Shown here: one piece after another, positions 45,082 to 63,150 of the stretch
Layout: every line of letters begins with the position of its first letter
How positions within the stretch are numbered: the stretch's first letter is position 1
Sequence record: MW822008.1
Source: Escherichia phage BF17
DNA length: 64,000 nt
Strand: one strand, 5' to 3'
Made by a program: the position numbers and the translations under genes
The notes under the pieces: generated by a model
Told to the model about the DNA's origin: nothing
Databases searched by the model: none
What the model saw: the letters and a program-made list of their open reading frames with translations, nothing else

Positions 45082-45142
45082 ACTTGCAAACTAAGTTTAA
45101 CGGCGTATAATGTTTTACATCGAGAGCGGGAACACTTCCCGC
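45082..45142 (+). promoter_or_regulatory. early-type sigma70-like promoter with leader hairpin
   Basis: ACTTGCAAACTAAGTTTAACGGCG TATAAT ... GCGGGAACACTTCCCGC. Confidence 0.6.
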
Positions 45143-45166
45143 TACATATTACGAGAGATTAAAACG

Positions 45167-45529
45167 ATGGCGACTCAAATCACTAAAATTATTGCTAACC
45201 TGGTTAACTTTCGCGACGAGATGAAAGATCTTCCGGCAGAAACGGTAAAAATTCACATTTCAGCTTATCGGGAACTTATTGCAATGTTACCGCTTAAGCG
45301 TGAACAATACGCCGCGACCGTGATGCTTGATGCGATGATCCATAAGATGATCGCCAGTGATTTAACGATGGTTTATCAGTATATGGGCGAAAATTTCGCG
45401 GTGTATAGTAAACCAGTACCAGGAATGGAAAGTACAGAAGTATTACACGGTTTAAATTTAAAACAAGATGCATGGGATAATATGCCTCGTTTCCTGGTAT
45501 GGGCTGACAGTGGCAAAATTTACGAATAA
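45167..45529 (+). CDS. hypothetical protein
   Basis: ORF 45110 trimmed to MATQITK; the longer reading starts inside the promoter. Confidence 0.6.
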   Translation: MATQITKIIANLVNFRDEMKDLPAETVKIHISAYRELIAMLPLKREQYAATVMLDAMIHKMIASDLTMVYQYMGENFAVYSKPVPGMESTEVLHGLNLKQDAWDNMPRFLVWADSGKIYE

Positions 45530-45541
45530 GTTTAATAAAGT

Positions 45542-45602
45542 ACTTGCAAACTAAGTTTAAAAGCGTATAATACTTTACATCAGGTGGGGAATAGTTCCCC
45601 AC
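45542..45602 (+). promoter_or_regulatory. early-type promoter with leader hairpin
   Basis: TACTTGCAAACTAAGTTTAAAAGCG TATAAT; hairpin GGGGAATAGTTCCCC. Confidence 0.6.
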
Positions 45603-45623
45603 TATAATTAAGAGATTAATTTT

Positions 45624-45857
45624 ATGAGTACTATTTTAACTGTTTCTCAATCCGTTGCACTGACTGACCTATTAAACGCTTTAAGCCGTTGCACTGAGGT
45701 TGGCTTGTTTGATGTGGTTGACGTTGCACCGGACGTTATTAATCATTTTTGTGATGCGATGGAAGAATGTAAGGAAGATGATAGCCGTATGATGGCGGTC
45801 GCCTTTGAGGAAGTACAGCCGGGTGAGATCAAAGGTTTACCAGTACTGAAAAAATAG
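45624..45857 (+). CDS. hypothetical protein
   Basis: 77-aa ORF after promoter/hairpin. Confidence 0.6.
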   Translation: MSTILTVSQSVALTDLLNALSRCTEVGLFDVVDVAPDVINHFCDAMEECKEDDSRMMAVAFEEVQPGEIKGLPVLKK

Positions 45858-45918
45858 TACTTGCAAACTAAGTTTAAAAGCGTATAATACTTTCTATCAG
45901 GTGGTGAATAGTTCCCCA
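45858..45918 (+). promoter_or_regulatory. early-type promoter with leader hairpin
   Basis: near-identical copy of 45542 unit. Confidence 0.6.
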
Positions 45919-45939
45919 CTATATAAGAGGATTAAAAAA

Positions 45940-46179
45940 ATGGCTAAATCAAAAATGTTCTTAGGTCACAAAAACAAAACTCATTGGAATGTAAGCCTTT
46001 GGATTAATAACGATGAGTCATTGTACCGGTTGGCCCAGGACTTTATTAATGATAGCACTAATCGCAATGATGCGGCCCGTCATATGATGCTATTTTTAGA
46101 ACAGACTGGACAAGATAAAACACCGGACGGATTCAAATATAGCACTACTGCGATCCGTGCGGCGATGGTTGGAATGTAA
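45940..46179 (+). CDS. hypothetical protein, paralog of 47980-48219
   Basis: trimmed to MAKSK; shares GHKNKT.WNVSLWINN and PDGFKYSTTAIRAAMVGM. Confidence 0.6.
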   Translation: MAKSKMFLGHKNKTHWNVSLWINNDESLYRLAQDFINDSTNRNDAARHMMLFLEQTGQDKTPDGFKYSTTAIRAAMVGM

Positions 46180-46265
46180 TAGAATTTATTTAAAGTACTA
46201 TCATTTTTTTGCGATAGTACTTTATAATAGTGTTTTATTCATACACCAACGATAAGGGTAACAGC

Positions 46266-46532
46266 ATGAATATTAAGTATTTTGCGACGCGTGAACAAGC
46301 TCGGATCGCCGCACGCCAGGACGGGGCAACGTTTAAAGATATGGGAGCGGGATCGGCAAGTGGTGAACGTTGGGCCATTGTAAAGCGTAGTACCGCCAGA
46401 TCATTACAGTACTGGTTAGCGGCGTTAAAAAGTCCCGATAGTGTATCGCGTCGAGTGGTAGAAATAAAGCTCGACCGAAAGGGCAACCGCGTGACCGTGT
46501 ACCGTACTAAAAAGATTGCAGTACTTGAATAA
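46266..46532 (+). CDS. hypothetical protein, paralog of 58638-59033
   Basis: trimmed to MNIKYFATREQARIAARQDG; shares DRKGNRVTVY. Confidence 0.6.
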   Translation: MNIKYFATREQARIAARQDGATFKDMGAGSASGERWAIVKRSTARSLQYWLAALKSPDSVSRRVVEIKLDRKGNRVTVYRTKKIAVLE

Positions 46533-46536
46533 AAAG

Positions 46537-46598
46537 TACTTGCAAACTATGTTTAATGGCGTATAATGTTTTACATCGAGAGCGGGAACACTTCCCGC
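46537..46598 (+). promoter_or_regulatory. early-type promoter with leader hairpin
   Basis: ACTTGCAAACTATG...TATAAT...GCGGGAACACTTCCCGC. Confidence 0.6.
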
Positions 46599-46619
46599 CT
46601 ATAACCTGGAGTAATAAAA

Positions 46620-46850
46620 ATGACTAATATGTATATGACTGAAGTTAAAACCGTAAAAGATACTACCACGAATAAAACTACTTACTTACAGCGGATCTGC
46701 GGTGTATGGCAACGTATCAGCAAATCAAAGTACTTTAAATTAACATCATATGCAAACCGTTCGGATTCATTCAGTACTGAAATAAAAGGTAATAAAGTAC
46801 ACCAATACGGCACTTATTATTATTATAGCCTGGACGCGATTGCAGTATAA
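46620..46850 (+). CDS. hypothetical protein
   Basis: 76-aa ORF, GGAG upstream. Confidence 0.55.
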   Translation: MTNMYMTEVKTVKDTTTNKTTYLQRICGVWQRISKSKYFKLTSYANRSDSFSTEIKGNKVHQYGTYYYYSLDAIAV

Positions 46851-47092
46851 GCAGTTTACAAATCTTTACAATTGCCGGTATTGACTTATTTTGTCAGTAC
46901 TGGCATAATGTATTCATTGGCAGATAAGCCGTAGCCCATAGGGTGCGGGAGTGTATCTATAGAAAAAGTAGTTTATTACAGTTACAATTGTGCACCCGGT
47001 GGGTTAGCTGTTGTCATGGGGTATATTATGCCAGTACTTGATAATGCTGTCAATACTTTTTTTACTATTCAGTACTGAAAACTATTTTTAAA

Positions 47093-47130
47093 AAGTACTT
47101 GCAAACTATGTTTAAAGGCGTATAATGTTT
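47093..47130 (+). promoter_or_regulatory. early-type promoter driving a non-coding leader
   Basis: ACTTGCAAACTATGTTTAAAGGCG TATAAT; no ORF before the next promoter. Confidence 0.55.
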
Positions 47131-47215
47131 TACATCAGGACGGGGAACGAAATAAGTAACTCCCCGTTAAGTAGCCCAGGAGTAAGGCACACGAAAAACT
47201 CCCCTGATAAAATAG
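47131..47215 (+). ncRNA. candidate small RNA / structured leader, copy 1
   Basis: ~85-nt conserved block CAGGACGGGGAACGAAA.AAGTAAC.CCCGTTAAGTAG.CCAGGAGTAAG...CCCCTGATAAAA; second copy at 57447-57525. Confidence 0.4.
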
Positions 47216-47262
47216 TTTGACAAATGTTTTTAAAAGCGTATAATACTTACATCAACTACTGA
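47216..47262 (+). promoter_or_regulatory. promoter upstream of 47277
   Basis: TTGACA ... TATAAT before GAGGG and ATG. Confidence 0.45.
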
Positions 47263-47276
47263 ATGAGGGTTACAAA

Positions 47277-47888
47277 ATGAAAACTATCACTACTACTACT
47301 TTCGTTATGGATTTTTCTGAATTGAACGCAGAACAAAAAACGTCAGCTATCGAACTGGTTCGGGAACGTGAAAAAAACTTAAACGATGATTATTTTTCTG
47401 AAAGTGAAATTGAATACTATAAAGAAACAGTACTACCGGAATATGGCATTAATGACGCTGATTTACGTTTCAGTGGCTTTTGGTCCCAGGGTGACGGTGC
47501 ATCAATCAGTACTGACCACGTTGACGCAGTGAAGTTTTTACGCAAGGTAAGAGCATTAACTAAGTATCGCTCAATCCGTCACTTGCTGAATGAAGATGAT
47601 TTGGCGATGAGTGTAAAGCGTTCTCACTCCCACTACTCGCATGAAAACACTGTAAGCGGGTACATTGAATCGGCTTACACTGATTTAACCGCAAAACAAG
47701 AAACGTTAGTTAATGAGCTTGAGGAACTACTCACTGAAACTATTCGTGAATTATCCCGCAAGTTGTACCGTGATTTAGAGAATGCATATGAGGATCAATT
47801 CACTACTGAAAACATTACGGCACTGATTGAGGGTAACGAATATCAATTCAATGTTATTGATGGCGTAGTAGAATCAATCGAATATTAA
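47277..47888 (+). CDS. hypothetical acidic protein
   Basis: 203-aa ORF. Confidence 0.65.
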   Translation: MKTITTTTFVMDFSELNAEQKTSAIELVREREKNLNDDYFSESEIEYYKETVLPEYGINDADLRFSGFWSQGDGASISTDHVDAVKFLRKVRALTKYRSIRHLLNEDDLAMSVKRSHSHYSHENTVSGYIESAYTDLTAKQETLVNELEELLTETIRELSRKLYRDLENAYEDQFTTENITALIEGNEYQFNVIDGVVESIEY

Positions 47889-47896
47889 TTTAAAAA

Positions 47897-47960
47897 AGTA
47901 CTTGCAAACTAAGTTTAAAAGCGTATAATACTTTATATCGAGGCGGGGAGTGGTTCCCCG
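47897..47960 (+). promoter_or_regulatory. early-type promoter with leader hairpin
   Basis: ACTTGCAAACTAAG...TATAAT; hairpin GCGGGGAGTGGTTCCCCGC. Confidence 0.6.
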
Positions 47961-47979
47961 CTCAAACGAGGATTTAAAA

Positions 47980-48219
47980 ATGGCTAGTTCTAAAACTTAC
48001 AACGGGCACAAAAACAAAACTCAATGGAATGTAAGCCTTTGGATTAATAACGGTGAGTCATTGTATCGGCTTGCACAAAGTTGTATCGCACAAAGTAGAA
48101 CTAAAGATATTGCAGCGGAATGTATGTACCGCAGATTAAAAGCCAACGGTACTACTACAACGCCGGACGGTTTTAAGTATAGCACTACTGCGATCCGTGC
48201 TGCAATGGTTGGAATGTAA
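47980..48219 (+). CDS. hypothetical protein, paralog of 45940-46179
   Basis: trimmed to MASSKTYNGHKNKTQWNVSLWINN. Confidence 0.6.
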   Translation: MASSKTYNGHKNKTQWNVSLWINNGESLYRLAQSCIAQSRTKDIAAECMYRRLKANGTTTTPDGFKYSTTAIRAAMVGM

Positions 48220-48276
48220 TATTCAGTACTGAGATAATGGCGGGTAATAGTTCCCGCCTTTACTGAGGGTTATCTA

Positions 48277-48537
48277 ATGAGTAAAGTAATAAAGTACAAT
48301 GTGTTAAGCAAATCATTGTCTATCAGTGAATGCACCGATGGTTTTTGGATGTACGATGAAACGCGTGGCATGAATTTAGCTATGCGTGCAAAAACTGCTG
48401 AGGCGGCGTATATTCAAGCACTGGAATACTACCAGGAACGTTTAAAGGAAGTAGAAGAAGATTATAAAAGCCTCAAAGCGAAAGTAGATCATTTCGTCGG
48501 TCAATTCATCGAGGAAGACGACGACAAACAATATTGA
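48277..48537 (+). CDS. hypothetical protein
   Basis: 86-aa ORF, GAGGG upstream. Confidence 0.55.
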   Translation: MSKVIKYNVLSKSLSISECTDGFWMYDETRGMNLAMRAKTAEAAYIQALEYYQERLKEVEEDYKSLKAKVDHFVGQFIEEDDDKQY

Positions 48538-48540
48538 AAA

Positions 48541-48606
48541 AGTACTTGCAATTAGTTTTCAGTACTGTATAATGGTTTACATCAAAGGGAGAAATGGTTC
48601 TCCCTG
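48541..48606 (+). promoter_or_regulatory. early-type promoter with leader hairpin
   Basis: ACTTGCAATTAG...TATAAT; hairpin GGGAGAAATGGTTCTCCC. Confidence 0.6.
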
Positions 48607-48623
48607 GTAATGAGGAAAATAAA

Positions 48624-48845
48624 ATGGCTAATATCACTACTCTTTCCCAACTGGAAGCACTGGTTAAATCTATGCGGGAACATGCCGACAAAATCGGCGT
48701 ACAAGATCCAGCCGTTTGCTTCTGCGACGAATTGAATGATGATACCCTGGTAATAGCAGAAGTCCAGGACGTTTCTAACTATTCATCGCGTTACACTGGC
48801 GGCGTAGCAAATAAAGGTGACTTCTGTTTATACCTTACAAAATAA
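48624..48845 (+). CDS. hypothetical protein
   Basis: trimmed to MANITTLSQ. Confidence 0.55.
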   Translation: MANITTLSQLEALVKSMREHADKIGVQDPAVCFCDELNDDTLVIAEVQDVSNYSSRYTGGVANKGDFCLYLTK

Positions 48846-49009
48846 CAACGCGGGGAGATAATAACTCCCCGTTACTTTTTCAGTACTGAATCATTTAATA
48901 GACGGATCTATGCACCCGGTGGGTTAGTGACTGTTTCGTCTTGATGTAGTAATTATGCCAGTACTGGATGCACTTGTCAACAACTATTTTTCAAATACTT
49001 TTTATTAAA

Positions 49010-49068
49010 ATACTTGCAATTAGTTTTTAAACGCGTATAATGTTTTGCATAGGGGGAGCGGTTCCCCT
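49010..49068 (+). promoter_or_regulatory. early-type promoter with leader hairpin
   Basis: ACTTGCAATTAG...TATAAT; hairpin GGGGGAGCGGTTCCCC. Confidence 0.6.
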
Positions 49069-49088
49069 GGTAACTAAGGAATAATAAA

Positions 49089-49325
49089 ATGCTTGAACAA
49101 ATCAAATCAACGTCTTCGAATGTAACGGGAACGGTAGCACACTTTACTAGTGATGAATCGCGGGGCGTTCCCTATTGTGCTGTACATGTAAACACTGAGG
49201 GTAACTACTGGTTTACGGTTTACGGATCATATTCATTTGGACGGCCAGGGCATCAAAAAATTCTGGATAAAGTACAACCAACGGGTAAAAATATCACTGC
49301 TGAAATGTTTTATAAAAAATCATAA
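49089..49325 (+). CDS. hypothetical protein
   Basis: 78-aa ORF. Confidence 0.55.
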   Translation: MLEQIKSTSSNVTGTVAHFTSDESRGVPYCAVHVNTEGNYWFTVYGSYSFGRPGHQKILDKVQPTGKNITAEMFYKKS

Positions 49326-49326
49326 A

Positions 49327-49390
49327 GTACTTGATAATAGTTTTTAGTACTGTATAATATTTTACATCGCAAGGGGGAGCGGTTCCCCCT
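49327..49390 (+). promoter_or_regulatory. early-type promoter with leader hairpin
   Basis: ACTTGATAATAG...TATAAT; hairpin GGGGGAGCGGTTCCCCC. Confidence 0.55.
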
Positions 49391-49409
49391 GGTAACTAAG
49401 GATAATCAA

Positions 49410-49709
49410 ATGAAAATTGCAATCATCGCCCTGGCTTTATCTGTTTCCTCTTTCGCTGTTAATGCGTCATTAGATGTAAGTAGTGAAAAATTCATTCAGT
49501 GCACTGTTGCAATGACCGATGAAAGTACTGGCGAGATTGTTTTAAAGGATTTAGAGATCCAGCCGGAAGCATTTAAAAACGGGCCGTTCCATGAAGAAGA
49601 CGAAAAAGGTAGCACGACAATTTATTACGATGCAAGTACTAAACGCGGTTCGGTCACTGTTATGGATACTGAGAAAGTAACTCATACTGGCGTTATTAAT
49701 TGCCGTTGA
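49410..49709 (+). CDS. small secreted protein
   Basis: 99 aa; signal-peptide-like MKIAIIALALSVSSFAVNA. Confidence 0.6.
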   Translation: MKIAIIALALSVSSFAVNASLDVSSEKFIQCTVAMTDESTGEIVLKDLEIQPEAFKNGPFHEEDEKGSTTIYYDASTKRGSVTVMDTEKVTHTGVINCR

Positions 49710-49730
49710 TATATACTACGGGGTAACATC

Positions 49731-49961
49731 ATGACTAAGCGAATTGTTTTACTTAACGAAAGCAGTACTACACAACTACTTAACGCCGTGCATTATGATA
49801 TTGAAACGAGCGTTAATCTTATCAGTACTGTAGTACTGTTGGACACTGGAAAGGTCGCCAATGATAAAGCGATTGCAGGTATACTAACGGATCTTGAGCC
49901 TGGTAGCAGTGCATCAATAACGTTAAATGGTAAAGTGTTTAACATTTTACTTACTGATTAA
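49731..49961 (+). CDS. hypothetical protein
   Basis: 76-aa ORF. Confidence 0.5.
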   Translation: MTKRIVLLNESSTTQLLNAVHYDIETSVNLISTVVLLDTGKVANDKAIAGILTDLEPGSSASITLNGKVFNILLTD

Positions 49962-49966
49962 GTACA

Positions 49967-49995
49967 TAGCCCACCTGGTGGGCTTTTTTGTTTTT
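49967..49995 (+). terminator. rho-independent terminator
   Basis: AGCCCACCTGGTGGGCT + TTTTTGTTTTTG. Confidence 0.65.
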
Positions 49996-50043
49996 GTAGT
50001 ATCGTAGTACTGAGATACTTTGAAAATAGTTTTAAAAAAGTAG

Positions 50044-50072
50044 TTGACATTACCGCAGAAAAGCGTAGAATG
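50044..50072 (+). promoter_or_regulatory. sigma70-like promoter with ~120-nt leader
   Basis: TTGACA, 16-17 nt, TAGAAT. Confidence 0.5.
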
Positions 50073-50194
50073 TATTACATCAAGACGGGGAGCACTAAGT
50101 AGACCGCCAGTAAGTCGAACGAAAAACTGGACACGTCGAGAAAACTTTGATACACTAATAAACGTAAACTAAACTTTAATTGAGGATTTATAAA

Positions 50195-50677
50195 ATGGCT
50201 AATGTAAAATCATTCATCAAAGCACTGGTAGCAAATGAAACTAACGTCGCGGCTGAGATCCTGGCTGAACTGGATAACGATACCATGAAAGCGGTACGCA
50301 ATAATTTTAACATCGCGTACAGTACTGCGAAAGAACTACAAGCAAATAAAGCGGCAGAAATTGAAGCGGCAAAGGCGGCCCGTGAAGCAGAACTACAAGC
50401 AACAATCGAAAGTATTCAGGCGGCAGTAGTTGGATTGGATCTGGAAGTAGTTACAGAGATGGCACAAAAAGCCCTGGCGGTTAAGTATGGGGAAGACAAG
50501 CCAGAAGTAAAAGCCAAAAAATGGATTCAGGAACGCGTAGCGGTAGTACTGGACAACGGGGAAGAATATCTGATTCCGGTGCGTGGTAACTGCATTGCGG
50601 TAGTACTGGACGCGATTAACTCCAGTGGTATGACTCGCGAGGAATGGATCGAAGCTCATCGCAAAGTTGAAGCATAA
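50195..50677 (+). CDS. hypothetical Ala/Glu-rich protein
   Basis: trimmed to MANVKSF after GAGGA; ~160 aa. Confidence 0.6.
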   Translation: MANVKSFIKALVANETNVAAEILAELDNDTMKAVRNNFNIAYSTAKELQANKAAEIEAAKAAREAELQATIESIQAAVVGLDLEVVTEMAQKALAVKYGEDKPEVKAKKWIQERVAVVLDNGEEYLIPVRGNCIAVVLDAINSSGMTREEWIEAHRKVEA

Positions 50678-50698
50678 CAATTAAAGTACTGAATCACT

Positions 50699-50730
50699 AG
50701 CCCACTTATACAGTGGGCTTTTTTGTGTTT
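50699..50730 (+). terminator. rho-independent terminator
   Basis: AGCCCACTTATACAGTGGGCT + TTTTTGTGTTT. Confidence 0.65.
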
Positions 50731-50875
50731 ATCGTTTACCAGGCCACCAGCACCGCCTAGAAACGATTCTAACGCATTAAACTGATTATCTGATGCATCA
50801 CCCTAGCTGGTGGCGTTAAGGTCGTTAGAATGCGATTGAGTGCGTTTAAAGTATTTTACAAAAAGTAATAAAAAG

Positions 50876-50940
50876 TACTTGCACGATTAAGAGATTAGCG
50901 TATAATGTTTTACATCGAGAGGGGGAAACGGTTCTCCTTC
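50876..50940 (+). promoter_or_regulatory. early-type promoter with leader hairpin
   Basis: ACTTGCACGATT...TATAAT; hairpin GGGGGAAACGGTTCTCC. Confidence 0.55.
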
Positions 50941-57270: not shown

Positions 57271-57284
57271 AAATATTTGAAAAA

Positions 57285-57306: not shown

Positions 57307-57414
57307 TTTGCTATTATATACGCATAGAAACAAATCAGCCCACAGGGTGCATAAATGTATCTATTGTTTGCTGGTGGCTAGTACTGAAAACTATTTTTAA
57401 AAAAGTACTTGCAT

Positions 57415-57446
57415 TGTACTTAGAATCAAGTATAATGTTTTACATC
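57415..57446 (+). promoter_or_regulatory. early-type promoter driving the second candidate small-RNA copy
   Basis: ACTTGCATTGTACTTAGAATCAAG TATAAT. Confidence 0.55.
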
Positions 57447-57525
57447 AGGACGGGGAACGAAACAAGTAACCCCGTTAAGTAGTCCAGGAGTAAGACATAA
57501 GAAAACCTCCCCTGATAAAATAGTT
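57447..57525 (+). ncRNA. candidate small RNA / structured leader, copy 2
   Basis: near-identical to 47131-47215; again between an upstream promoter and a downstream TTGACA...TATAAT. Confidence 0.4.
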
Positions 57526-57585
57526 TGACAATAGAAAGTAAACGAGTATAATACTTACATCAACCACTGATAAGGAAACATTAAA

Positions 57586-57861
57586 ATGCGGATTCTACTG
57601 ACAGCTAACGAAATCGAACAAGTACTGACTACTAACCTGGAAGACTGGAAACGTGAAGCAGATATCCAGGCGGTTCAACTGCTTAACGATAAGTTAACGC
57701 CGGATGACTTAAGCAAGATTGTAGATCCTCAATTCTACGAAGATATCCACGACACCGCGTTAAGCGTCGAGGATGTACTAGATAAGCACTACATTGATAT
57801 TGATTTGCAGGTTTACGGTCGTAAAAACTTTATCACTATTCACGACATTTATAATAATTAA
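57586..57861 (+). CDS. hypothetical protein
   Basis: 91-aa ORF. Confidence 0.55.
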   Translation: MRILLTANEIEQVLTTNLEDWKREADIQAVQLLNDKLTPDDLSKIVDPQFYEDIHDTALSVEDVLDKHYIDIDLQVYGRKNFITIHDIYNN

Positions 57862-57863
57862 GT

Positions 57864-57925
57864 ATTGACAAAGTATCTTAGTACTGTATAATAGTTTACA
57901 TCGAGAGGGGGAATGGTTCCCCTCC
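57864..57925 (+). promoter_or_regulatory. sigma70-like promoter with leader hairpin
   Basis: TTGACAAAGTATCTTAGTACTG TATAAT; hairpin GGGGGAATGGTTCCCCTCC. Confidence 0.6.
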
Positions 57926-57947
57926 TAACAAAGAGAGAGAAATAAAA

Positions 57948-58130
57948 ATGGCTAAATGCACTATCTGCAAGAAAGAAATAGTATTAGTTCCAAGTGCCCG
58001 TGAACGTGCCGCTCGGTTCGGTGGCAAAGCGTCAGACTATACAAAAATGTTTACTACCCATGCAGCTTGCCAGGTAGCAAAACGTTCACAAGAAAGCGTA
58101 GAATTAATGCGTAAACTTTCCAAAAAATAA
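57948..58130 (+). CDS. small Cys-containing protein
   Basis: 60 aa; C-x2-C at N-terminus. Confidence 0.5.
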   Translation: MAKCTICKKEIVLVPSARERAARFGGKASDYTKMFTTHAACQVAKRSQESVELMRKLSKK

Positions 58131-58133
58131 GTA

Positions 58134-58196
58134 TTGACAAAGTATCTTAGTACTGTATAATAGTTTACATCAAGTGAGGGGAAACGGTTCCCCTCC
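58134..58196 (+). promoter_or_regulatory. sigma70-like promoter with leader hairpin
   Basis: near-duplicate of 57864 unit. Confidence 0.6.
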
Positions 58197-58218
58197 TAAC
58201 AAAGAGAGAGAAATAAAA

Positions 58219-58542
58219 ATGGCTATGATCCTTGCCCAGAAAGTAGAACTGAAAATTGTAACCTCCTTTGACATTAAAGTTAATCGGTGGACTGATTCAC
58301 ACGGCAATACTTACCACTCTTGCTACGTGTCCGCGTTAATTGGCGACCGCTGGGAAGACTTGGGACATGAAACCTTTACTTACGGTTACGGTACACAAGG
58401 AGAATACACGGGCTTGGAGATCATTAAAGAAACCGTTATAGGTTTCAACCCGAAAGAAAAAGTTATTCACCGCATCGAAAAAGAGATTAACAAAGAAATA
58501 ACAGTTCGCTACTACGATGTAAAACGTAAGAAAGACATGTAA
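58219..58542 (+). CDS. hypothetical protein, paralog of 51801-52124
   Basis: trimmed to MAMILAQ. Confidence 0.6.
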   Translation: MAMILAQKVELKIVTSFDIKVNRWTDSHGNTYHSCYVSALIGDRWEDLGHETFTYGYGTQGEYTGLEIIKETVIGFNPKEKVIHRIEKEINKEITVRYYDVKRKKDM

Positions 58543-58637
58543 TAGAATCCATTTAAAGTACTATTTGACATTGCCCAGATAGTACTTTATAATAGACTCT
58601 AACTTGTAGTACTAACTCAACTAATAGGATGTATACC

Positions 58638-59033
58638 ATGATTACTAAATTCTACGCTACCCGTGAAGCTGCCCGTATTGTTGCACGCGAGGAAGGAGCA
58701 GCATTTAAAGACATGGGCAAAGATGCACCGAAAGGTCAACGCTGGGCCGTACAGTTCAAAGAAATCTCTGATATTGTGAATTCACCTGAGCCAGTACTAA
58801 CAGCAGCAGAACTAAAACGAGCGGATTTACTGGCGGCAGTACTTAACGCACAAGATGAATTTATCGCTGATTCTGATATCAAAGTACAGACAAACCATAC
58901 CGCTTGGACTCACGCGGATCACCTGGCAAACCTTAAGCGTCCAAGTGAACTGGTTCGCAACCAGAAAGAGATCCGACACGACCGTAAGGGTAATCGTGTA
59001 ACAGTATACAGTAAACGCCGCCAGGTTATCTAA
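58638..59033 (+). CDS. hypothetical protein, paralog of 46266-46532
   Basis: trimmed to MITKFYATREAARIVAREEG. Confidence 0.6.
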   Translation: MITKFYATREAARIVAREEGAAFKDMGKDAPKGQRWAVQFKEISDIVNSPEPVLTAAELKRADLLAAVLNAQDEFIADSDIKVQTNHTAWTHADHLANLKRPSELVRNQKEIRHDRKGNRVTVYSKRRQVI

Positions 59034-59054
59034 TAACTTGCAGTACTAACAACA

Positions 59055-59088
59055 CGGCGGGATCAGTTCCCGCCTTTTTTATAGGATA
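59055..59088 (+). terminator. rho-independent terminator
   Basis: GGCGGGATCAGTTCCCGCC + TTTTTT. Confidence 0.65.
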
Positions 59089-59095
59089 AACTAAA

Positions 59096-59350
59096 ATGAT
59101 TAAGGTACAACTATCTAAAGATAATATCTTGCGGGTACACTATAAAGCACCACAGAGAATCATCACAAAGGCCGTACAGCTTGCTAATGAGTTTATTAAT
59201 GGTAACCTATTACCAAGGAAGTTAAGCAACGGAAAACTGCGTGTAATCGATGTAGACACTAACAACAGAATAGTAATTGAGAACACAGGAAAGATAAACC
59301 TATATGAACACCAACAATATAATAAGAAAATAAAACTAATATCACGTTGA
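59096..59350 (+). CDS. hypothetical protein
   Basis: 84-aa ORF. Confidence 0.5.
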   Translation: MIKVQLSKDNILRVHYKAPQRIITKAVQLANEFINGNLLPRKLSNGKLRVIDVDTNNRIVIENTGKINLYEHQQYNKKIKLISR

Positions 59351-59376
59351 CAGTACTCAATTGTTTTAGTATTATG
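59347..59376 (+). promoter_or_regulatory. sigma70-like promoter
   Basis: TTGACA-17-TATTAT; duplicated at 59623. Confidence 0.55.
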
Positions 59377-59403
59377 TACACATACCAACACGGGAGAAAC
59401 AAA

Positions 59404-59622
59404 ATGAAATTATCTAAAATCGAAAAGAAAACTATTGATGAAGCAGTTAAGCACGGTTATACCTTTCGTAATGATTCACATTTTACCAATTTTCAACAAG
59501 GCCAAAGGACTATTAAAAAACTAATTGACAAAGGTTTATTAGTTAAAGTAGATAACGGTAACGGCATTGAGTATCAGCCAACCCAAGACGCATTATCTTT
59601 AAAGAAATATGCAATTATCTAA
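59404..59622 (+). CDS. hypothetical protein
   Basis: trimmed to MKLSKIEKK. Confidence 0.55.
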   Translation: MKLSKIEKKTIDEAVKHGYTFRNDSHFTNFQQGQRTIKKLIDKGLLVKVDNGNGIEYQPTQDALSLKKYAII

Positions 59623-59653
59623 TTGACAGTACTCAAATGTTTTAGTACTATAT
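59623..59653 (+). promoter_or_regulatory. sigma70-like promoter (duplicate of 59347 unit)
   Basis: TTGACAGTACTCAAATGTTTTAG TACTAT. Confidence 0.55.
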
Positions 59654-59679
59654 GTACATACCAACACGGGGAAAACAAA

Positions 59680-59922
59680 ATGATTACTTTAGAAAAACGT
59701 ATCAAAGAAACTACATCGCTGGTGGAACTGTTAACAGTACTGAAATGCCGTACTACTCGGTTTAGTACACCGGACTTTATTAATATGGTTGATGTTAACG
59801 GTCGTTATCGCATTGCAGTAGAACATGGAACAGCGAAAGTATTCAGTACTAAAAACACTAAGGAAGTGATTCACGCGGTTAGTGTGAAAAAAGTGGTTGC
59901 CATTGATAGTAAAGTACTGTAA
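59680..59922 (+). CDS. hypothetical protein
   Basis: trimmed to MITLEKRIKE. Confidence 0.55.
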   Translation: MITLEKRIKETTSLVELLTVLKCRTTRFSTPDFINMVDVNGRYRIAVEHGTAKVFSTKNTKEVIHAVSVKKVVAIDSKVL

Positions 59923-59953
59923 GATAGTTTCATTAACTCAAGGAGAACATGCA

Positions 59954-60538
59954 ATGCGTAATTATACTAAATTCATCCGTACCCTGTCAGAAATGGAAAC
60001 CAACAAAGAGATCCTTTCAGCTTGTCGGTTAGCTGGTCTGGAGATCATCGGTGCGGGTTCTTCCCGTATTGTATTCGCTTTAAATGATCGGTTAGTGATT
60101 AAGGTCGCCAATTGTGATGCGGGTGTAGAACAAAATGAAACTGAATGTAAGGTATGGAATTTTTTAGACTATGACCGCCCTCAATTGAAACAGTACTTTG
60201 CAAAGGTGCATATGCATTTATGCGATCCTGATAATATGTTTATCGTTATGGATCGGTTGAGTACTGCAAGCAAAGGCAGTGTAAAGCACGTTAACGCGTG
60301 CAACGAATTAAAGTACAATATTAAACGTAATGCCATTGAACGCCAGCACCGCTTTGCTGATGCACTACAACACGTCGATGATACATTATCAACACTAACG
60401 ATAAGAGATATCAGAAAACAGAATATCGGCCAGGATCGTAATGGACTTATTAAAGTACTTGATTACGGTTTAACCCGCAATATCTGGAATCAGTACTATA
60501 AAAAGCGTGATGTGGCAGCAAGTAAAGTAACACGATAA
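59954..60538 (+). CDS. possible small protein-kinase-like protein
   Basis: trimmed to MRNYTKF after AGGAGA; kinase-like motifs IGAGSSRIVF, VIKVA, IRDIRKQNIG, VLDYGL. Confidence 0.45.
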   Translation: MRNYTKFIRTLSEMETNKEILSACRLAGLEIIGAGSSRIVFALNDRLVIKVANCDAGVEQNETECKVWNFLDYDRPQLKQYFAKVHMHLCDPDNMFIVMDRLSTASKGSVKHVNACNELKYNIKRNAIERQHRFADALQHVDDTLSTLTIRDIRKQNIGQDRNGLIKVLDYGLTRNIWNQYYKKRDVAASKVTR

Positions 60539-60551
60539 AAAAGATTAAAAA

Positions 60552-60573
60552 AGGGATTGATTTCGGTCAGTCC
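60552..60573 (+). terminator. hairpin terminator with embedded -35-like box
   Basis: GGGATTGATTTCGGTCAGTCCC. Confidence 0.55.
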
Positions 60574-60674
60574 CTTTGCTATTATATATTCATTGAGAGA
60601 TAGCTCACTGACCCACAGGGTGCATAAATGTATCTATTATATAAGTATTCAGTACTGAAAACTATTTTTAAAAA

Positions 60675-60742
60675 GTACTTGCATTGTACTTAGAATCAAG
60701 TATAATGTTTTATATCGAGAGGGGGGGAACGGTTCTCCCTCA
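60675..60742 (+). promoter_or_regulatory. early-type promoter with leader hairpin
   Basis: ACTTGCATTGTACTTAGAATCAAG TATAAT; hairpin GGGGGGGAACGGTTCTCCCTC. Confidence 0.6.
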
Positions 60743-60761
60743 AAGAATAAGGAATAAAATC

Positions 60762-60983
60762 ATGACTACAATGACTTGCATTTACGCTTCCAATCTTCTG
60801 AATGATGCGGCCTTTAATGTTGATTCAGAATATCAATGTTATCGGGATGAAAATAAAAAAGTTTTTGTAGTTGATAATAATGGTTTCCATATTGAAATAC
60901 AATCCGGCTTCACTGGTGTTGATGGTAAATCAGTATGGGGCGTACAGGATGATAACGGTACATATCATTTTAAACGTAATTAA
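60762..60983 (+). CDS. hypothetical protein
   Basis: trimmed to MTTMTCIYAS. Confidence 0.55.
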   Translation: MTTMTCIYASNLLNDAAFNVDSEYQCYRDENKKVFVVDNNGFHIEIQSGFTGVDGKSVWGVQDDNGTYHFKRN

Positions 60984-60985
60984 GT

Positions 60986-61046
60986 ATTGACAAAGTATCT
61001 TAGTACTGTATAATAGTTTACATCAAGGGGAGAATAGTTCTCCCCG
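60986..61046 (+). promoter_or_regulatory. sigma70-like promoter with leader hairpin
   Basis: TTGACAAAGTATCTTAGTACTG TATAAT; hairpin GGGGAGAATAGTTCTCCCC. Confidence 0.6.
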
Positions 61047-61067
61047 ATACTAAAAGGAAACAAAATT

Positions 61068-61340
61068 ATGTCCAGCTACTCCGCTACTATGATCATTAAA
61101 GATATGAACGGTAATCCTACTTCCGCTGGTGGATCATTTGGAAACATTAATTTAGATGGTCGGTTATCCATGCAATCAGCCATCGATGCAGCGAAAGAAG
61201 TTTTTAAGAATGAATGCACTGTAAGCAAGCTGGATTATATGGGATTCGCTATCGAGAAAACTAATCGTTTTGTGAACTACAAAAATCCACTGATGATTGA
61301 TACTAACCTGAAAGCTAACGAAGTGGAATACTTATTATGA
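61068..61340 (+). CDS. hypothetical protein
   Basis: 90-aa ORF. Confidence 0.55.
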   Translation: MSSYSATMIIKDMNGNPTSAGGSFGNINLDGRLSMQSAIDAAKEVFKNECTVSKLDYMGFAIEKTNRFVNYKNPLMIDTNLKANEVEYLL

Positions 61341-61528
61341 CAGTTGAAGAAGTTAAAAAAGTACTGGCAGTACTACGCTATCATAATCATTGCAAGGTGA
61401 AGAATGATCCTGATTATGTTGATTCATCCCTGGAGGAAGACACATTAAACGCAATAAGCCATATGCAAACATTAGCAAAGCGTATGACCGAAAAGAATAG
61501 ACCGGACTATATCGGAAATAAAATTTAA
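61337..61528 (+). CDS. hypothetical protein
   Basis: 63-aa ORF overlapping upstream stop. Confidence 0.5.
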   Translation: MTVEEVKKVLAVLRYHNHCKVKNDPDYVDSSLEEDTLNAISHMQTLAKRMTEKNRPDYIGNKI

Positions 61529-61530
61529 AA

Positions 61531-61597
61531 AGTACTTGCATTGTAGTTAGATTAACGTATAATGTTTTACATAGAGCGGGGGAATAGTTCTCCCGCC
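61531..61597 (+). promoter_or_regulatory. early-type promoter with leader hairpin
   Basis: ACTTGCATTGTAGTTAGATTAACG TATAAT; hairpin GCGGGGGAATAGTTCTCCCGC. Confidence 0.6.
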
Positions 61598-61614
61598 AGT
61601 CCAGGAGATACACC

Positions 61615-61878
61615 ATGAACACTATCGAAATCACTATCAATGCACACGTATACGACAACGTAGTACTGCAAACTACTATGACCGCTAACGATACCAGTAC
61701 TTTGCGGAATACTGTTATTAGTGCCGTATGTGCCGCTATCGGTGATGTCGCCCTGGAAAATGCAAAACACGTAAACGATGGTTTCACTATGTGCAAACGT
61801 GATAACGCAAAACATATCATCGTGGAAGGTTACGGCGGTGTAGAATTTAATGTTTATATGAAAAAAGTACTTGCATAA
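61615..61878 (+). CDS. hypothetical protein
   Basis: 87-aa ORF. Confidence 0.55.
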   Translation: MNTIEITINAHVYDNVVLQTTMTANDTSTLRNTVISAVCAAIGDVALENAKHVNDGFTMCKRDNAKHIIVEGYGGVEFNVYMKKVLA

Positions 61879-61927
61879 TAACTAAAACAAAGTATAATGT
61901 TTTGCATAGGGGGAGATGTCCTCCCCC
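61866..61927 (+). promoter_or_regulatory. early-type promoter with leader hairpin
   Basis: ACTTGCATAATAACTAAAACAAAG TATAAT; hairpin GGGGGAGATGTCCTCCCCC. Confidence 0.55.
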
Positions 61928-61945
61928 ACTAAAAGGAGTAATAAA

Positions 61946-62170
61946 ATGGCTAACTTTGATGAACTGATGCGGGAAGTAGCTAACCTGGCAGAAGAGAAAA
62001 AATCATTCGATTCTATCTATAACACCTCTTACCGTGATTCAGTACTGGCATGTAACCAGGATCAAAAAGATGAACTAATCGCCACCTATCATGAAGCATG
62101 GAAGTACTACCGACAATGGGAGAAAGAAGAAAGAGAGTCTACCATTGACGGCCTCAATAATCTAATCTAA
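61946..62170 (+). CDS. hypothetical protein
   Basis: trimmed to MANFDELMRE. Confidence 0.55.
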   Translation: MANFDELMREVANLAEEKKSFDSIYNTSYRDSVLACNQDQKDELIATYHEAWKYYRQWEKEERESTIDGLNNLI

Positions 62171-62189
62171 AAGTTTTATTTCAGTACTA

Positions 62190-62220
62190 TTGACATAGCT
62201 TGATAGTACTGATGTAATAA
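62190..62220 (+). promoter_or_regulatory. sigma70-like promoter (TTGACA class), repeat copy
   Basis: TTGACATAGCTTGATAGTACTGA TGTAAT. Confidence 0.5.
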
Positions 62221-62246
62221 CTTTACTAACTACAAGGGGAAACATC

Positions 62247-62504
62247 ATGGAACAATTCACACAATATCGGGTAAATCCTCAAGCTATGGCCTACGTAGAA
62301 GACCATAAAACGTTACCAGTACTGCAACCAGTTAAAGGCCATATCTATCGTGCAATGTCGTGGAGTACGGCCCAGGATGGCTATAAAACCGTAGCCGTTG
62401 GTATGTACTGCGGTAATGGTGAATGGTTTGATCCAAATAATCCGGTAGCCATTGACAGTACTGAAAAAATGAAATGGGCCGACTACATCGAAGATATTTC
62501 ATAA
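62247..62504 (+). CDS. hypothetical protein
   Basis: 85-aa ORF. Confidence 0.55.
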   Translation: MEQFTQYRVNPQAMAYVEDHKTLPVLQPVKGHIYRAMSWSTAQDGYKTVAVGMYCGNGEWFDPNNPVAIDSTEKMKWADYIEDIS

Positions 62505-62518
62505 AAAGAATAAAAAAA

Positions 62519-62540
62519 AGGAGTTGACTTCGGTCCGCTC
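62519..62540 (+). terminator. hairpin terminator with embedded TTGACT
   Basis: GGAGTTGACTTCGGTCCGCTCC. Confidence 0.55.
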
Positions 62541-62746
62541 CTTTAGTACTATATACGCATAGAAACAAATCAGCCCACAGGGTGCATAAGTGTATCCAAA
62601 ATATATAGTTAATAACGGTGAGTAACTATCTGCTGGTGGAACTAAAACTATTAATAAAAAAGTATTGACAAAGTATATCAGTACTGCAATAATGTATCTC
62701 GTAGGGCGGCAATGGTGCGACGGCCCACAAAGTTAGGAGATTCAAA

Positions 62747-63079
62747 ATGAGTACTTCAATCGCTATCGTTAAAGCTTTCATCCGTACCAATGTTTCATCT
62801 GTATTCATCGACGGTCTGGATCGGGAAGTAGAATACTCAATCATTATCGCACAGACTGCAAACGGTGCTCGGTATATCCTTAATGATAGTGAAGCAAATC
62901 ACTACTACTTCACTAAAGCTACTGGCTTTAAACGCATCGATGCTGATGTAGTATACGCTAAGATGAATAAGCTGGTAGACAAGATTAACGCTAAAGGTAC
63001 TATAGATTTACAGTACTGGACCGAAACCGATCCAGAATATGGATCTCACCGCTACCTGAATCCAGGTATTAAAATGTAA
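62747..63079 (+). CDS. hypothetical protein
   Basis: 110-aa ORF; AGGAG upstream; preceded by TTGACA promoter at 62664. Confidence 0.55.
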   Translation: MSTSIAIVKAFIRTNVSSVFIDGLDREVEYSIIIAQTANGARYILNDSEANHYYFTKATGFKRIDADVVYAKMNKLVDKINAKGTIDLQYWTETDPEYGSHRYLNPGIKM

Positions 63080-63083
63080 AAAG

Positions 63084-63150
63084 TACTTGCATAGTACTTA
63101 GAATCAAGTATAATGTTTTACATAGAGAGGGGGAAATGGTTCTCCCTCCT
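63084..63150 (+). promoter_or_regulatory. early-type promoter with leader hairpin
   Basis: ACTTGCATAGTACTTAGAATCAAG TATAAT; hairpin GAGGGGGAAATGGTTCTCCCTCC. Confidence 0.6.

Follow-up and report, generated by a model that had tools for sequence, protein, structure and literature searches.

The terminal repeat of Escherichia phage BF17 carries an array of short promoter units, which are best read as early-gene promoter cassettes of the PeSL (promoter-early stem-loop) kind, with the stem-loop shifted into the transcript. A promoter scan found 45 of these σ70-type units, all on the plus strand between 45.08 and 63.15 kb, and a compact G-rich leader hairpin was present in 22. Very likely, the units are σ70-type promoters that each come with a leader, Shine-Dalgarno site, and ATG of their own. 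The whole explanation, early promoter cassettes with an RNA-protective leader hairpin and a role in recombination, has in our judgement about an even chance of being right.

The window, by which we mean the whole 64,000-nt stretch analysed, is 93-97% identical to Asteriusvirus genomes, and this sequence comparison assigns it to an Asteriusvirus jumbo coliphage of the 121Q/PBECO4 group. Base 1 of phage fEgEco12 aligns with position 43411, and its base 20993, the end of its direct terminal repeat (DTR), with position 64000; the DTR of fEgEco12 was delimited by PhageTerm and restriction digests (PMC13070987). By analogy, the repeat is presumably the early, host-takeover portion of the genome. In the related phage PA5oct, terminal-repeat genes are transcribed early and at high levels, and rifampicin blocks progeny production (PMC7318152). 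Transcription-start, half-life, and expression data for this phage group were not found in the literature searched. The features, in window positions, are:

43411..64000, +, DTR, ~20.6 kb, contains all units described (from alignment to fEgEco12)
45084..45166, +, promoter unit; leader hairpin 45125-45143 (AGCGGGAA CAC TTCCCGCT); ATG 45167
45544..45623, +, promoter unit; leader hairpin 45583-45603; ATG 45624
45861..45939, +, promoter unit; degenerate hairpin 45901-45919, one T.C mismatch, TTTCTATC for TTTACATC; ATG 45940
46540..46619, +, promoter unit; leader hairpin 46582-46598; ATG 46620
47099..47216, +, promoter and ~85-nt structured non-coding leader beginning GGACGGGGAAC; runs into second promoter
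47217..47276, +, perfect TTGACA-16-TATAAT promoter without hairpin; ATG 47277
47902..47979, +, promoter unit; leader hairpin 47942-47962; ATG 47980
48546..48623, +, promoter unit; leader hairpin 48586-48605; ATG 48624
49014..49088, +, promoter unit; leader hairpin 49050-49069; ATG 49089
49331..49409, +, promoter unit; leader hairpin 49372-49390; ATG 49410
50044..50194, +, promoter (TAGAAT), 116-nt leader, without compact hairpin; ATG 50195
50879..50961, +, promoter unit; leader hairpin 50919-50940, two G.U pairs; ATG 50962
51198..51275, +, promoter unit; leader hairpin 51238-51258; ATG 51276
51439..51498, +, promoter, 17-bp spacer, TGn-CATAAT, without hairpin; AGTACT inverted repeat around -35; ATG 51499
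51731..51800, +, promoter of the 51439 class without leader hairpin; repeat family D7; ATG 51801
53004..53082, +, promoter unit; leader hairpin 53044-53063; ATG 53083
53233..53310, +, promoter unit; leader hairpin 53273-53292; ATG 53311
53805..53883, +, promoter unit; leader hairpin 53847-53864; ATG 53884
54240..54316, +, promoter unit; leader hairpin 54280-54298; ATG 54317
54549..54612, +, promoter, 17-bp spacer, CATAAT, without hairpin; ATG 54613
54820..54891, +, perfect promoter without hairpin; ATG 54892
55934..56008, +, promoter unit, 17-bp spacer, TATAGT; leader hairpin 55973-55991; ATG 56009
56555..56631, +, promoter unit; leader hairpin 56595-56614; ATG 56632
57282..57395, +, PeSL-like element; terminator-like hairpin enclosing the -35 (AAAGGGATTGACTCCGGTCAGTCCCTTT), then TATTAT -10; family D11
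57409..57524, +, promoter and ~85-nt structured non-coding leader, second copy; repeat family D12
57525..57585, +, perfect promoter without hairpin; ATG 57586
57865..57947, +, promoter unit; leader hairpin 57905-57924; ATG 57948
58134..58218, +, promoter unit; leader hairpin 58176-58195; ATG 58219
58565..58637, +, perfect TTGACA-17-TATAAT promoter without hairpin; ATG 58638
59347..59403, +, promoter (TATTAT) without hairpin; ATG 59404
59623..59679, +, paralogous promoter without hairpin; repeat family D15; ATG 59680
60679..60761, +, promoter unit; leader hairpin 60719-60741; ATG 60762
60987..61067, +, promoter unit; leader hairpin 61027-61045; ATG 61068
61536..61614, +, promoter unit; leader hairpin 61576-61596; ATG 61615
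61871..61945, +, promoter unit; leader hairpin 61909-61927 (GGGGGAG/CTCCCCC); ATG 61946
62190..62246, +, promoter of the 51439 class, degraded -10, without hairpin; repeat family D7; ATG 62247
62665..62746, +, promoter (AATAAT); imperfect, different GC hairpin ~62704-62726; ATG 62747
63087..63168, +, promoter unit; leader hairpin 63127-63148; ATG 63169

The array runs from the first -35 at 45084 to the end of the last hairpin at 63148, in agreement with the repeated unit that the initial annotation had placed at 45082-63150; the copies, put there at about 40, are real and number 45. In a consensus scan, 35 sites with at least 10 of 12 matches were found on the plus strand versus six on the minus strand, and nine promoters were perfect (TTGACA-16/17-TATAAT). 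A repeat search sorted the units into families, the largest with 20 copies. An A-rich stretch lies upstream of the promoters, and the -10 is almost invariant, its divergence between genomes being 0.2% compared with 7.4% at third codon positions. The presumed +1 was placed at a conserved CAT, 7-8 nt past the -10. The proposed layout of promoter, leader hairpin, Shine-Dalgarno site, and ATG was supported, with the hairpin in the transcribed leader, and open reading frames beginning MFYIE proved, as suggested, to be artefacts of a frame running through the unit (TATA-ATG TTT TAC ATC GAG, for example ORF 45110). The statement that almost every gene is preceded by a unit was too broad, as about 36 of ~54 genes have one, and GGAG is not the rule ahead of the ATG: it occurs in the Shine-Dalgarno regions of 7 of 37 units, with AAGGA, GAGG, and GAGA commoner. 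This low count does not support processing at GGAG by a RegB-like endoribonuclease, which had also been raised and is barely credible. Many hairpins do carry GGAG in their 5′ arm, and some Shine-Dalgarno sites contain it, but within the hairpins it is base-paired (probability about 0.93), and several stems have no GGAG at all (GCGGGAA, GTGGGGAA).

The compact hairpins have stems of 7-9 bp, loops of 3-5 nt, and folding energies of -9.4 to -14.5 kcal/mol. They begin 10-14 nt past the -10 and 3-7 nt (mostly 5) past the presumed +1, which is close to the presumed 5′ end but not at its extreme, where they had been located. They end 17-23 nt 5′ of the ATG, and are followed by an unstructured, A/U-rich stretch containing the Shine-Dalgarno site and ATG. 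Four further units have atypical hairpins: that at 45883 is degenerate, that at 62688 has a different GC stem, and those at 47121 and 57431 are interrupted, each opening an ~85-nt non-coding leader. With these included, about 58% of the 45 units have a hairpin, so that the earlier "most" is barely true. Hairpins of either kind are absent from 19 units, some with a perfect-consensus promoter, indicating that the leader hairpin is not essential for early expression. The suggested folding of leaders bore out the structure, as the first 32 nt reached a minimum free energy of -10 kcal/mol or lower in 25 of 40 leaders, compared with 0.9% of 32-nt segments outside the repeat and none of the 8 leaders of other promoters in the window. 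Folding of full leaders gave a hairpin pair probability of 0.93 and left the ribosome site 70% unpaired, not masked by the hairpin.

Since the unit copies are paralogues, the presence of the hairpin in many of them is not independent evidence. Among orthologues, five both-sided compensatory pair changes were found, versus 0-1 in slid controls, along with 11 one-sided changes that kept pairing. Two compensatory pairs distinguish the 46582-46598 hairpin from that of phage A4, and single ones occur at 47942-47962 (C-G to T-A in phage G17), 49372-49390 (G-C to A-T in phage SP27), and 61576-61596 (C-G to A-T in fEgEco12); at 54280-54298, phage A4 has GGGAAGTA/TACTTCCC in place of the entire stem. 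Internal pairs in 44 distinct hairpins include nine G.T and no A.C, a sense-strand bias in which several G.T cases may stem from one event. Loop divergence (13.9%) exceeds that of synonymous sites, and stems are better conserved than loops and spacers. In Klebsiella phage Muenster and Phapecoctavirus nepoznato (phAPEC8-like), the distance from the -10 is the same but the stems are unrelated; the hairpin type of the 62688 unit is also found in nepoznato. Together, the compensatory changes, G.T without A.C, the fast loops, and the shared position of unrelated stems make it likely that selection maintains the hairpin as a structure of the single, sense strand. A role at the RNA level, for example in stabilisation, would be consistent with this.

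That the hairpin has no function of its own, being a passenger of a duplicated cassette, or only recombination homology or DNA secondary structure, is highly unlikely. The units are clearly paralogous, the hairpins track one cassette family (16-bp spacer in 21 of the 22 compact-hairpin units), and crossovers at PeSLs have been mapped to the stem-loop or next to it (PMC2839356); however, the compensatory and wobble-only one-sided changes, the conservation of stems, and the same architecture with different sequences in other genera all argue against it. The same comparisons bear on a protein recognition site, which is decidedly unlikely, whether it is an RNA hairpin for a phage regulator (a translational repressor, an N/boxB-type antiterminator, or a mark of phage versus host mRNA) or a DNA palindrome for an early-promoter repressor. 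All Asteriusvirus copies share the G-run/C-run and the A-U closing pairs, the overlap with +4 to +25 is a favourable place for an operator, and the phage could gain from silencing about 25 promoters together. The fastest-evolving loops, however, argue against loop-specific recognition, the variable stem and loop lengths mean that half-site spacing is not fixed, the Muenster and nepoznato stems are unrelated, and the G.T versus A.C bias speaks against a double-stranded DNA site; the operator of the initial annotation, as a fixed-spacing DNA site, is not supported, given these lengths and stems wholly different between genera. As in λ nut/boxB, a short G/C-closed hairpin lies in early leader RNA. 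In λ boxB, N binds a conserved, purine-rich loop on a 5-bp stem, whereas loops are the most variable part here, there are about 25 copies, and N-type antitermination would not be needed because each gene has its own promoter.

PeSLs, described in the T4-like phages RB49/phi1, PST/T4, and nt-1/KVP40 (Arbiol et al. 2010, PMC2839356; Comeau et al. 2014, PMC4122927), are the closest described relatives of these units. Both are ~90-bp cassettes repeated between genes and made up of an A/T-rich upstream portion, a near-consensus σ70 promoter, and a polyG/polyC stem-loop with G.T pairs, followed by a Shine-Dalgarno site and ATG; both cluster among small orphan early genes, at breakpoints of gene insertion, deletion, and replacement between close relatives. 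The initial transcribed motif of RB49 PeSLs, CATCAAGACGAGA, occurs here in hairpin-less units. In the RB49 sequence we inspected, however, the stem-loop fills the -35/-10 spacer from a start 18 nt ahead of the -10, with an unstructured leader, and in PST the stem-loop lies upstream of the promoter, whereas here it occupies about +4 to +25 of its own transcript, at a fixed offset and without a T tract. No blastn similarity of the units to RB49-type units was found, and the cassettes here fill a jumbo-phage DTR, whereas PeSLs lie in internal hyperplastic regions. The window also has the classical PeSL arrangement, in which the hairpin covers the -35 (nine copies in 1-16 kb and about six in the repeat). 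In the 57282..57395 element, the -10 is followed by a short non-coding stretch with a CCCACAGGGTGC box, and sister copies begin at about 46873, 53676, 55343, 60550, and 62517.

PeSL stem-loops with polyG/polyC stems lowered reporter expression as a strong terminator would (PMC2839356), and one of five PeSL subclasses places the stem-loop downstream of the -10. The leader hairpins might likewise be attenuators that stop or damp read-through from the upstream gene, insulating each tandem promoter; canonical terminators are few in the array, and one of them (59056-59074) combines the same stem type with T6. We nevertheless regard this as unlikely. A T tract follows none of the 22 leader hairpins, in contrast to true terminators of the same region, and the offset from the -10, which varies in PeSLs, is fixed across genera, a constraint not needed by an attenuator of upstream transcription. 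Moreover, the hairpin lies within the unit's own transcript, which an attenuator would therefore stop too.

The early-gene repeats of PA5oct (PMC7318152) and CBB (PMC5259590) are likewise long DTRs full of small unknown genes, with RpoD-like promoters and UP-like elements, and are strongly transcribed early by host polymerase; the PA5oct repeat also contains non-coding RNAs (PMC7318152). Those papers describe promoters and terminators, but do not report a leader hairpin. In the present phage, breakpoints of gene gain and loss between relatives fall inside units: alignment with three relatives gave 58 ends, of which 49 lie between -65 and +71 relative to a -10, overlapping unit copies bound several indels, and the 60987..61067 unit adjoins a repeat-bounded gene indel relative to fEgEco12. 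Viable gene indels are expected to break in intergenic DNA anyway.

E. coli mRNAs can be stabilised by 5′ stem-loops, and obstacles block RNase E scanning (review PMC7509114). As cited there, the ompA and papA leaders (Emory et al. 1992; Arnold et al. 1998) resemble those described here in having a stable, 5′-proximal hairpin, free to vary in sequence, ahead of a single-stranded ribosome-binding region, and their protection was ascribed to blocked 5′-end-dependent RNase E attack; they differ in the 5′ tail (0-4 nt, compared with 3-7 nt predicted here), and the present hairpins form a multi-copy family in one genome. A stabiliser role for the leader hairpin is put forward tentatively, at somewhat short of even likelihood. 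In the 1992 work of Emory et al., 2-4 unpaired 5′ nucleotides were reportedly optimal for 5′-terminal protection, and the 3-7 here, with the +1 taken as the A of CAT, exceed this optimum, a point against a stabiliser. RppH tolerates 5′ tails of such length.

In the preferred reading, host RNA polymerase would act at ~45 co-directional promoters, each serving one or a few small genes, and half of the units would give a transcript whose first ~25 nt fold into a stable G/C hairpin. As a 5′-proximal protective structure in the RNA, the hairpin would hinder 5′-end-dependent attack, either by RppH and the RNase E 5′ sensor or by RNase E scanning, and, together with a ribosome bound just downstream, may give longer-lived early phage mRNAs. 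Because they are repeated between genes, the ~90-bp units would also serve as homology for recombination, by which early genes may be inserted, deleted, and swapped, as for PeSLs.

A scan for -35/-10 pairs identified 45 promoter-like units on the + strand, spanning 45084-63168, and a repeat search sorted them into families with as many as 20 members. In an independent consensus scan, 35 sites on the + strand and 6 on the - strand matched the consensus at 10 or more of 12 positions, and nine sites had a perfect TTGACA-16/17-TATAAT arrangement. The 5′ part of the unit is an A-rich stretch with AGTAC at its end, followed by a -35 element (TTGCAA, TTGCAT or TTGACA), a spacer that is 16 bp long in 21 of the 22 units with a compact G-rich leader hairpin, and TATAAT. 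After 3-4 nt comes TTACAT, whose CA lies 7-8 nt past the -10 and, by the usual sigma70 start rule, presumably represents -1/+1. Between the presumed +1 and the hairpin, 3-7 nt stay unpaired; after the hairpin, an A/U-rich segment of 17-23 nt that includes the Shine-Dalgarno element leads to the ATG, giving leaders of 40-50 nt in the hairpin units. Four further units carry atypical hairpins, and 19 have none; the hairpin-less units mostly have a 17-bp spacer, TGn-CATAAT and short leaders of 20-37 nt. The initial annotation had attributed ORFs beginning with MFYIE to reading through the unit, which was borne out (TATA-ATG-TTT-TAC-ATC-GAG). For annotators of such phages, the units mark true gene starts, and MFYIE ORFs are artefacts of promoter sequence.

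The hexamer AGTACT, mostly as (C)AGTACT(G), is the most over-represented of the window, with 135 copies in the terminal repeat versus 6.6 expected, and 140 versus 14.8 in the remaining window. It adjoins the -35 and -10 of units, and is found within coding sequence as well, in each of the three frames. The terminal repeats of fEgEco12 and SP27 contain AGTACT too, as does that of Klebsiella phage Muenster, with 157 copies versus 6.7 expected; 50 kb of RB49 sequence contained none.

Window positions 45000-53000 match 164 phage records, and the best matches, at 93-97% identity, are the Asteriusvirus jumbo coliphages ECO103 4-12-1, Turkey3, phAPEC6, G17, Sharanji, fEgEco12 and 121Q. When the window tail was aligned with fEgEco12, position 43411 corresponded to base 1 and position 64000 to base 20993, where the direct terminal repeat of that phage ends, as defined by PhageTerm and confirmed by restriction digests (PMC13070987). 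The region of the units is therefore the gene-bearing part of a direct terminal repeat of ~20.6 kb. At the repeat border the G+C content goes from ~33% to 39% and coding shifts to the + strand; the fEgEco12 genes just beyond the repeat are tightly packed, with many overlapping starts and stops. Within the repeat, ~36 of ~54 genes have their own unit, so the earlier statement that almost every gene is preceded by one was too broad, as was the placing of GGAG before the ATG, since just 7 of 37 Shine-Dalgarno regions contain GGAG. The leftmost 1.7 kb of the repeat is free of genes and contains, at 44216-44324, ~12 tandem copies of an 8-bp unit (CTAGACGG/nGAnGGCT), a candidate packaging, terminus or replication signal. 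The small proteins of the repeat are mostly unknown; those encoded at 55670-55927 and 59942-60538 are a DksA/TraR-type zinc finger (Pfam E = 1.6e-10) and a weak protein-kinase-like protein, for both of which host-takeover functions are plausible.

The 22 compact hairpins have stems of 7-9 bp, loops of 3-5 nt and predicted energies of -9.4 to -14.5 kcal/mol. In a folding check, the minimum free energy was at or below -10 kcal/mol in the first 32 nt of 25 of 40 leaders, compared with 0.9% of 32-nt windows outside the repeat and none of eight other promoters of the window. This background comparison was used instead of dinucleotide-shuffle z-scores, which were modest for single leaders (17 of 40 below -2), because runs of G and C still fold after shuffling. 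The initial reading of a promoter followed by a leader hairpin was correct, and the feature is real and statistically clear. Shuffling of 3′ arms among hairpins was dropped as evidence, being circular for hairpins chosen for their pairing, and orthologue comparisons were used for that reason.

Divergence of 22 window units from their orthologues in G17, fEgEco12, SP27 and A4, by part
-10: 0.2%
-35: 2.5%
Spacer: 6.1%
5′ arm: 7.0%
3′ arm: 3.3%
Loop: 13.9%
Third codon positions: 7.4%

In ungapped orthologue comparisons, 11 one-sided changes to stem pairs keep a standard pair and five changes are two-sided and compensatory, versus 0-1 two-sided kept changes in a control in which the 3′ partner was slid by 1-2 columns. 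Ten stem pairs are broken, eight of them in two units with a replaced or shifted hairpin. In phage A4, the hairpin at 54280 has been swapped for a different yet perfect stem, GGGAAGTA/TACTTCCC.

Two-sided compensatory changes in leader hairpins of + strand units
46582: G-C to T-A and C-G to G-C
47942: C-G to T-A
49372: G-C to A-T
61576: C-G to A-T

The structure of the leader hairpins is kept while their sequence is free. One alternative, third among the rival explanations, is that the hairpins are passengers of duplication, carried along as units multiplied into families; set beside the compensatory changes, it appears improbable. A set of 44 distinct hairpins, drawn from five genomes, has as internal non-Watson-Crick pairs nine G.T, no A.C and three others; where one side of a pair changed, it was mostly A/G in the 5′ arm facing T. 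This asymmetry argues for selection on the sense strand as a single strand rather than on a double-stranded site, with the limit that several G.T cases may share ancestry and so represent few independent events. Selection might act on the RNA or, less probably, on the non-template DNA strand, and the comparative evidence supports an RNA-level role for the leader hairpin.

None of the 22 leader hairpins is followed by a T tract and none appeared in a terminator scan, which does pick up true terminators in the same region (48850, 49968, 50699 and 59056) as well as hairpins enclosing a -35; an intrinsic (Rho-independent) terminator was rejected on these grounds. In the full leader, the hairpin has a pair probability of 0.93 and the ribosome site is 70% unpaired, versus 65% when the 5′ arm is removed. 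A mask over the ribosome site was discarded, as the site stays mostly open beside the formed hairpin, and the idea that the 5′ arm shields the Shine-Dalgarno element from the C-rich 3′ arm was also discarded, the effect on accessibility (0.70 with the arm, 0.65 without) being too small. The possibility of an N4-type hairpin promoter, read by a virion RNA polymerase, was rejected because the hairpin sits 3′ of a consensus sigma70 promoter. Rfam covariance models gave no match at any hairpin at E <= 1 across 43000-64000, and a tRNA scan of the sequence found none. A protein-binding site, second among the rivals, is unlikely; a site specific to the loop is probably not involved, because the loop is the fastest-evolving part. 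A mini-ORF starting at the ATG that many loops contain (GGAGAA-ATG-A) was likewise rejected, as this ATG is unconserved, other loops being TAG, CAC and GCGG. The suggestion that GGAG might be a RegB target ranks fourth and is very improbable, given that most Shine-Dalgarno regions lack the motif and that the GGAG of the hairpin is paired.

The closest described elements are the promoter-early stem-loop cassettes (PeSLs) of T4-like phages, which combine sigma70-like early promoters with a polyG/polyC stem-loop among orphan genes, and which mediate modular shuffling; in a reporter, their stem-loop acted as a terminator (PMC2839356, PMC4122927). Like PeSLs, the units have strong sigma70-like promoters preceded by an A/T-rich upstream region, AAAAAGTAC, and the 22 hairpins are stable G-rich stem-loops. 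Their placement differs. In the commonest PeSL classes the stem-loop lies upstream of, within or overlapping the promoter, and is thus part of the upstream transcript, whereas the window hairpins begin 10-14 nt past the -10; a minor subclass with the stem-loop "downstream of the -10" is mentioned (PMC2839356). In RB49 PeSLs, read directly from the sequence, a GGGGATC...GATCCCC hairpin begins 18 nt upstream of the -10 and fills the -35/-10 spacer, and the leaders are unstructured, whereas the hairpins of the 22 units lie within their own transcripts. The window also has the classical layout, with the hairpin over the -35: nine copies lie at 1-16 kb, and the repeat contains about six. Another class of promoters, located outside the repeat on the + strand at 996, 4590, 7633, 12105, 12688 and 15448, has the form AAAGGGTTGACTTCGGTCAGCCCTTTTTGC-TATAAT-CATTTCATC with unstructured leaders; its -35 is enclosed by a terminator-like hairpin with T's behind it, which makes a composite terminator/promoter of classical PeSL layout. 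The units are best filed as a PeSL variant sited in a jumbo-phage terminal repeat. That the leader hairpin acts as a PeSL-type attenuator ranks first among the rivals but is still rather unlikely, with the reporter result for PeSL stem-loops on one side and the missing T tracts on the other.

Units also coincide with breakpoints, as PeSLs do in plastic orphan-gene regions. Between the window and fEgEco12, all indels and replacements break within a unit, and several alignments overlap by 79-124 nt, so that the indel is flanked by two unit copies. In alignments with three relatives, 49 of the 58 ends fall within -65 to +71 of a -10, and 30 of the 58 fall in the -35 to +55 interval, which makes up 22.5% of the region (p about 1e-6), with the qualification that viable indels are expected to break intergenically anyway. 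The repeat-bounded indels, however, indicate recombination between units. Such shuffling carries the PeSL idea from T4-like phages to jumbo-phage terminal repeats, and helps to explain why ~20 kb of orphan genes varies strongly among otherwise near-identical genomes.

Similar arrays are present in other phages. In the Alcyoneusvirus Klebsiella phage Muenster, the terminal repeat is 20 kb long and contains the same AGTAC-TTGACA ... TATAAT ... TACAT promoter array, and the leader hairpins lie at the same offset as those of the window but have unrelated stems.

Stems of Muenster leader hairpins
GGGGATACA/TGTATCCCC
AGAGATTCCA/TGGAATCTCT
GGGAATGAA/TTCATTCCC

Phapecoctavirus nepoznato has GGCGGCA/TGCCGCC and GCGGGAA-type hairpins 3′ of early promoters. 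With the position fixed relative to the start site and the sequence free, these hairpins suggest a function tied to the transcript 5′ end. The rV5-like phage A73 (Vequintavirinae, 142 kb) contains near-identical promoter-hairpin units at 5913-6420, together with genes homologous to those at 50962 and 51276 of the window, which indicates horizontal movement of early-gene cassettes between unrelated coliphages. An exact-pattern scan of IMG/VR found the unit in multiple copies in Asteriusvirus-like jumbo contigs only, and single matches in other viral contigs look like chance. Literature searches on Asteriusvirus, RaK2-like, rV5 and CBB phages revealed neither leader hairpins nor mapped transcription starts; papers on CBB, rV5, PA5oct, phAPEC6, Sharanji and fEgEco12 report the promoters and not the hairpin. 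In PA5oct, a related phage, the genes of the terminal repeat show strong transcription at early times, and rifampicin stops progeny production (PMC7318152).

The repeat also contains ~10 short promoter-driven non-coding units, each with its own -35/-10.

Non-coding units (approximate coordinates)
46881-46990, + strand
53683-53790, + strand
55343-55440, + strand
57289-57395, + strand
60557-60665, + strand
62524-62625, + strand
around 44518, - strand
around 44735, - strand
around 47003, - strand
around 48923, - strand

These carry a small variable covarying hairpin (GACG/CGTC, GTC/GAC, GAGC/GCTC), followed by an invariant box, CCCAYNGGGTGC, that often precedes ATGTATCTAT; two of them converge (46881 on the + strand and 47053 on the - strand). 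The family is kept in Muenster, had no match in Rfam, and possibly represents small RNAs; the PA5oct repeat likewise encodes abundant non-coding RNAs (PMC7318152). At 47134-47225 and 57444-57533, a promoter is followed by a conserved non-coding stretch of ~85 nt abutting a second, perfect promoter, an arrangement also found in fEgEco12 and A73. This leader folds consistently, and its copies are too alike to reveal covariation. The repeat shows strong enrichment of Chi sites (GCTGGTGG), with eight on the + strand versus ~0.07 expected.

Chi sites in the terminal repeat
44007, + strand
50806, + strand
55057, + strand
56102, + strand
57370, + strand
59718, + strand
61125, + strand
62632, + strand
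43995, - strand
50744, - strand

A palindromic double Chi hairpin is located 585 nt from the physical end, at 43995-14, and the pattern is alike in fEgEco12 (10/2), SP27 (8/2) and Muenster (7/1). In their orientation, the + strand sites would be recognised by RecBCD entering from the right genome end, which suggests end protection.

For the leader hairpin, the favoured reading, at somewhat less than even confidence, is that it serves as a 5′-proximal protective structure for early mRNAs. Its 3′ end would lie just outside the ribosome footprint, giving a layout of hairpin and ribosome site that resembles the ompA leader. E. coli mRNAs are stabilised by 5′-proximal stem-loops, and obstacles block 5′-end scanning by RNase E (review PMC7509114). 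However, the predicted unpaired 5′ tail of 3-7 nt, counted from the presumed +1, and the 19 units that manage without a hairpin both weaken the case for protection. A further, unlikely proposal is that the hairpin labels the early transcripts of the terminal repeat with a dedicated "self" mark, by which early mRNAs would escape phage-triggered global mRNA destruction or be selectively recognised during it. The mark would be a structure common to jumbo and other large coliphages (Asteriusvirus, Alcyoneusvirus, phAPEC8-like and some rV5-like), and a phage factor delivered with the virion or made very early might act through it by binding 5′-proximal G/C hairpins.

If the hairpins do stabilise early mRNAs, they would offer off-the-shelf parts for designing expression in E. 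coli. They would also define a simple, portable rule for the first minutes of expression of large virulent phages: a consensus promoter, then a 5′ hairpin, then an open ribosome site.
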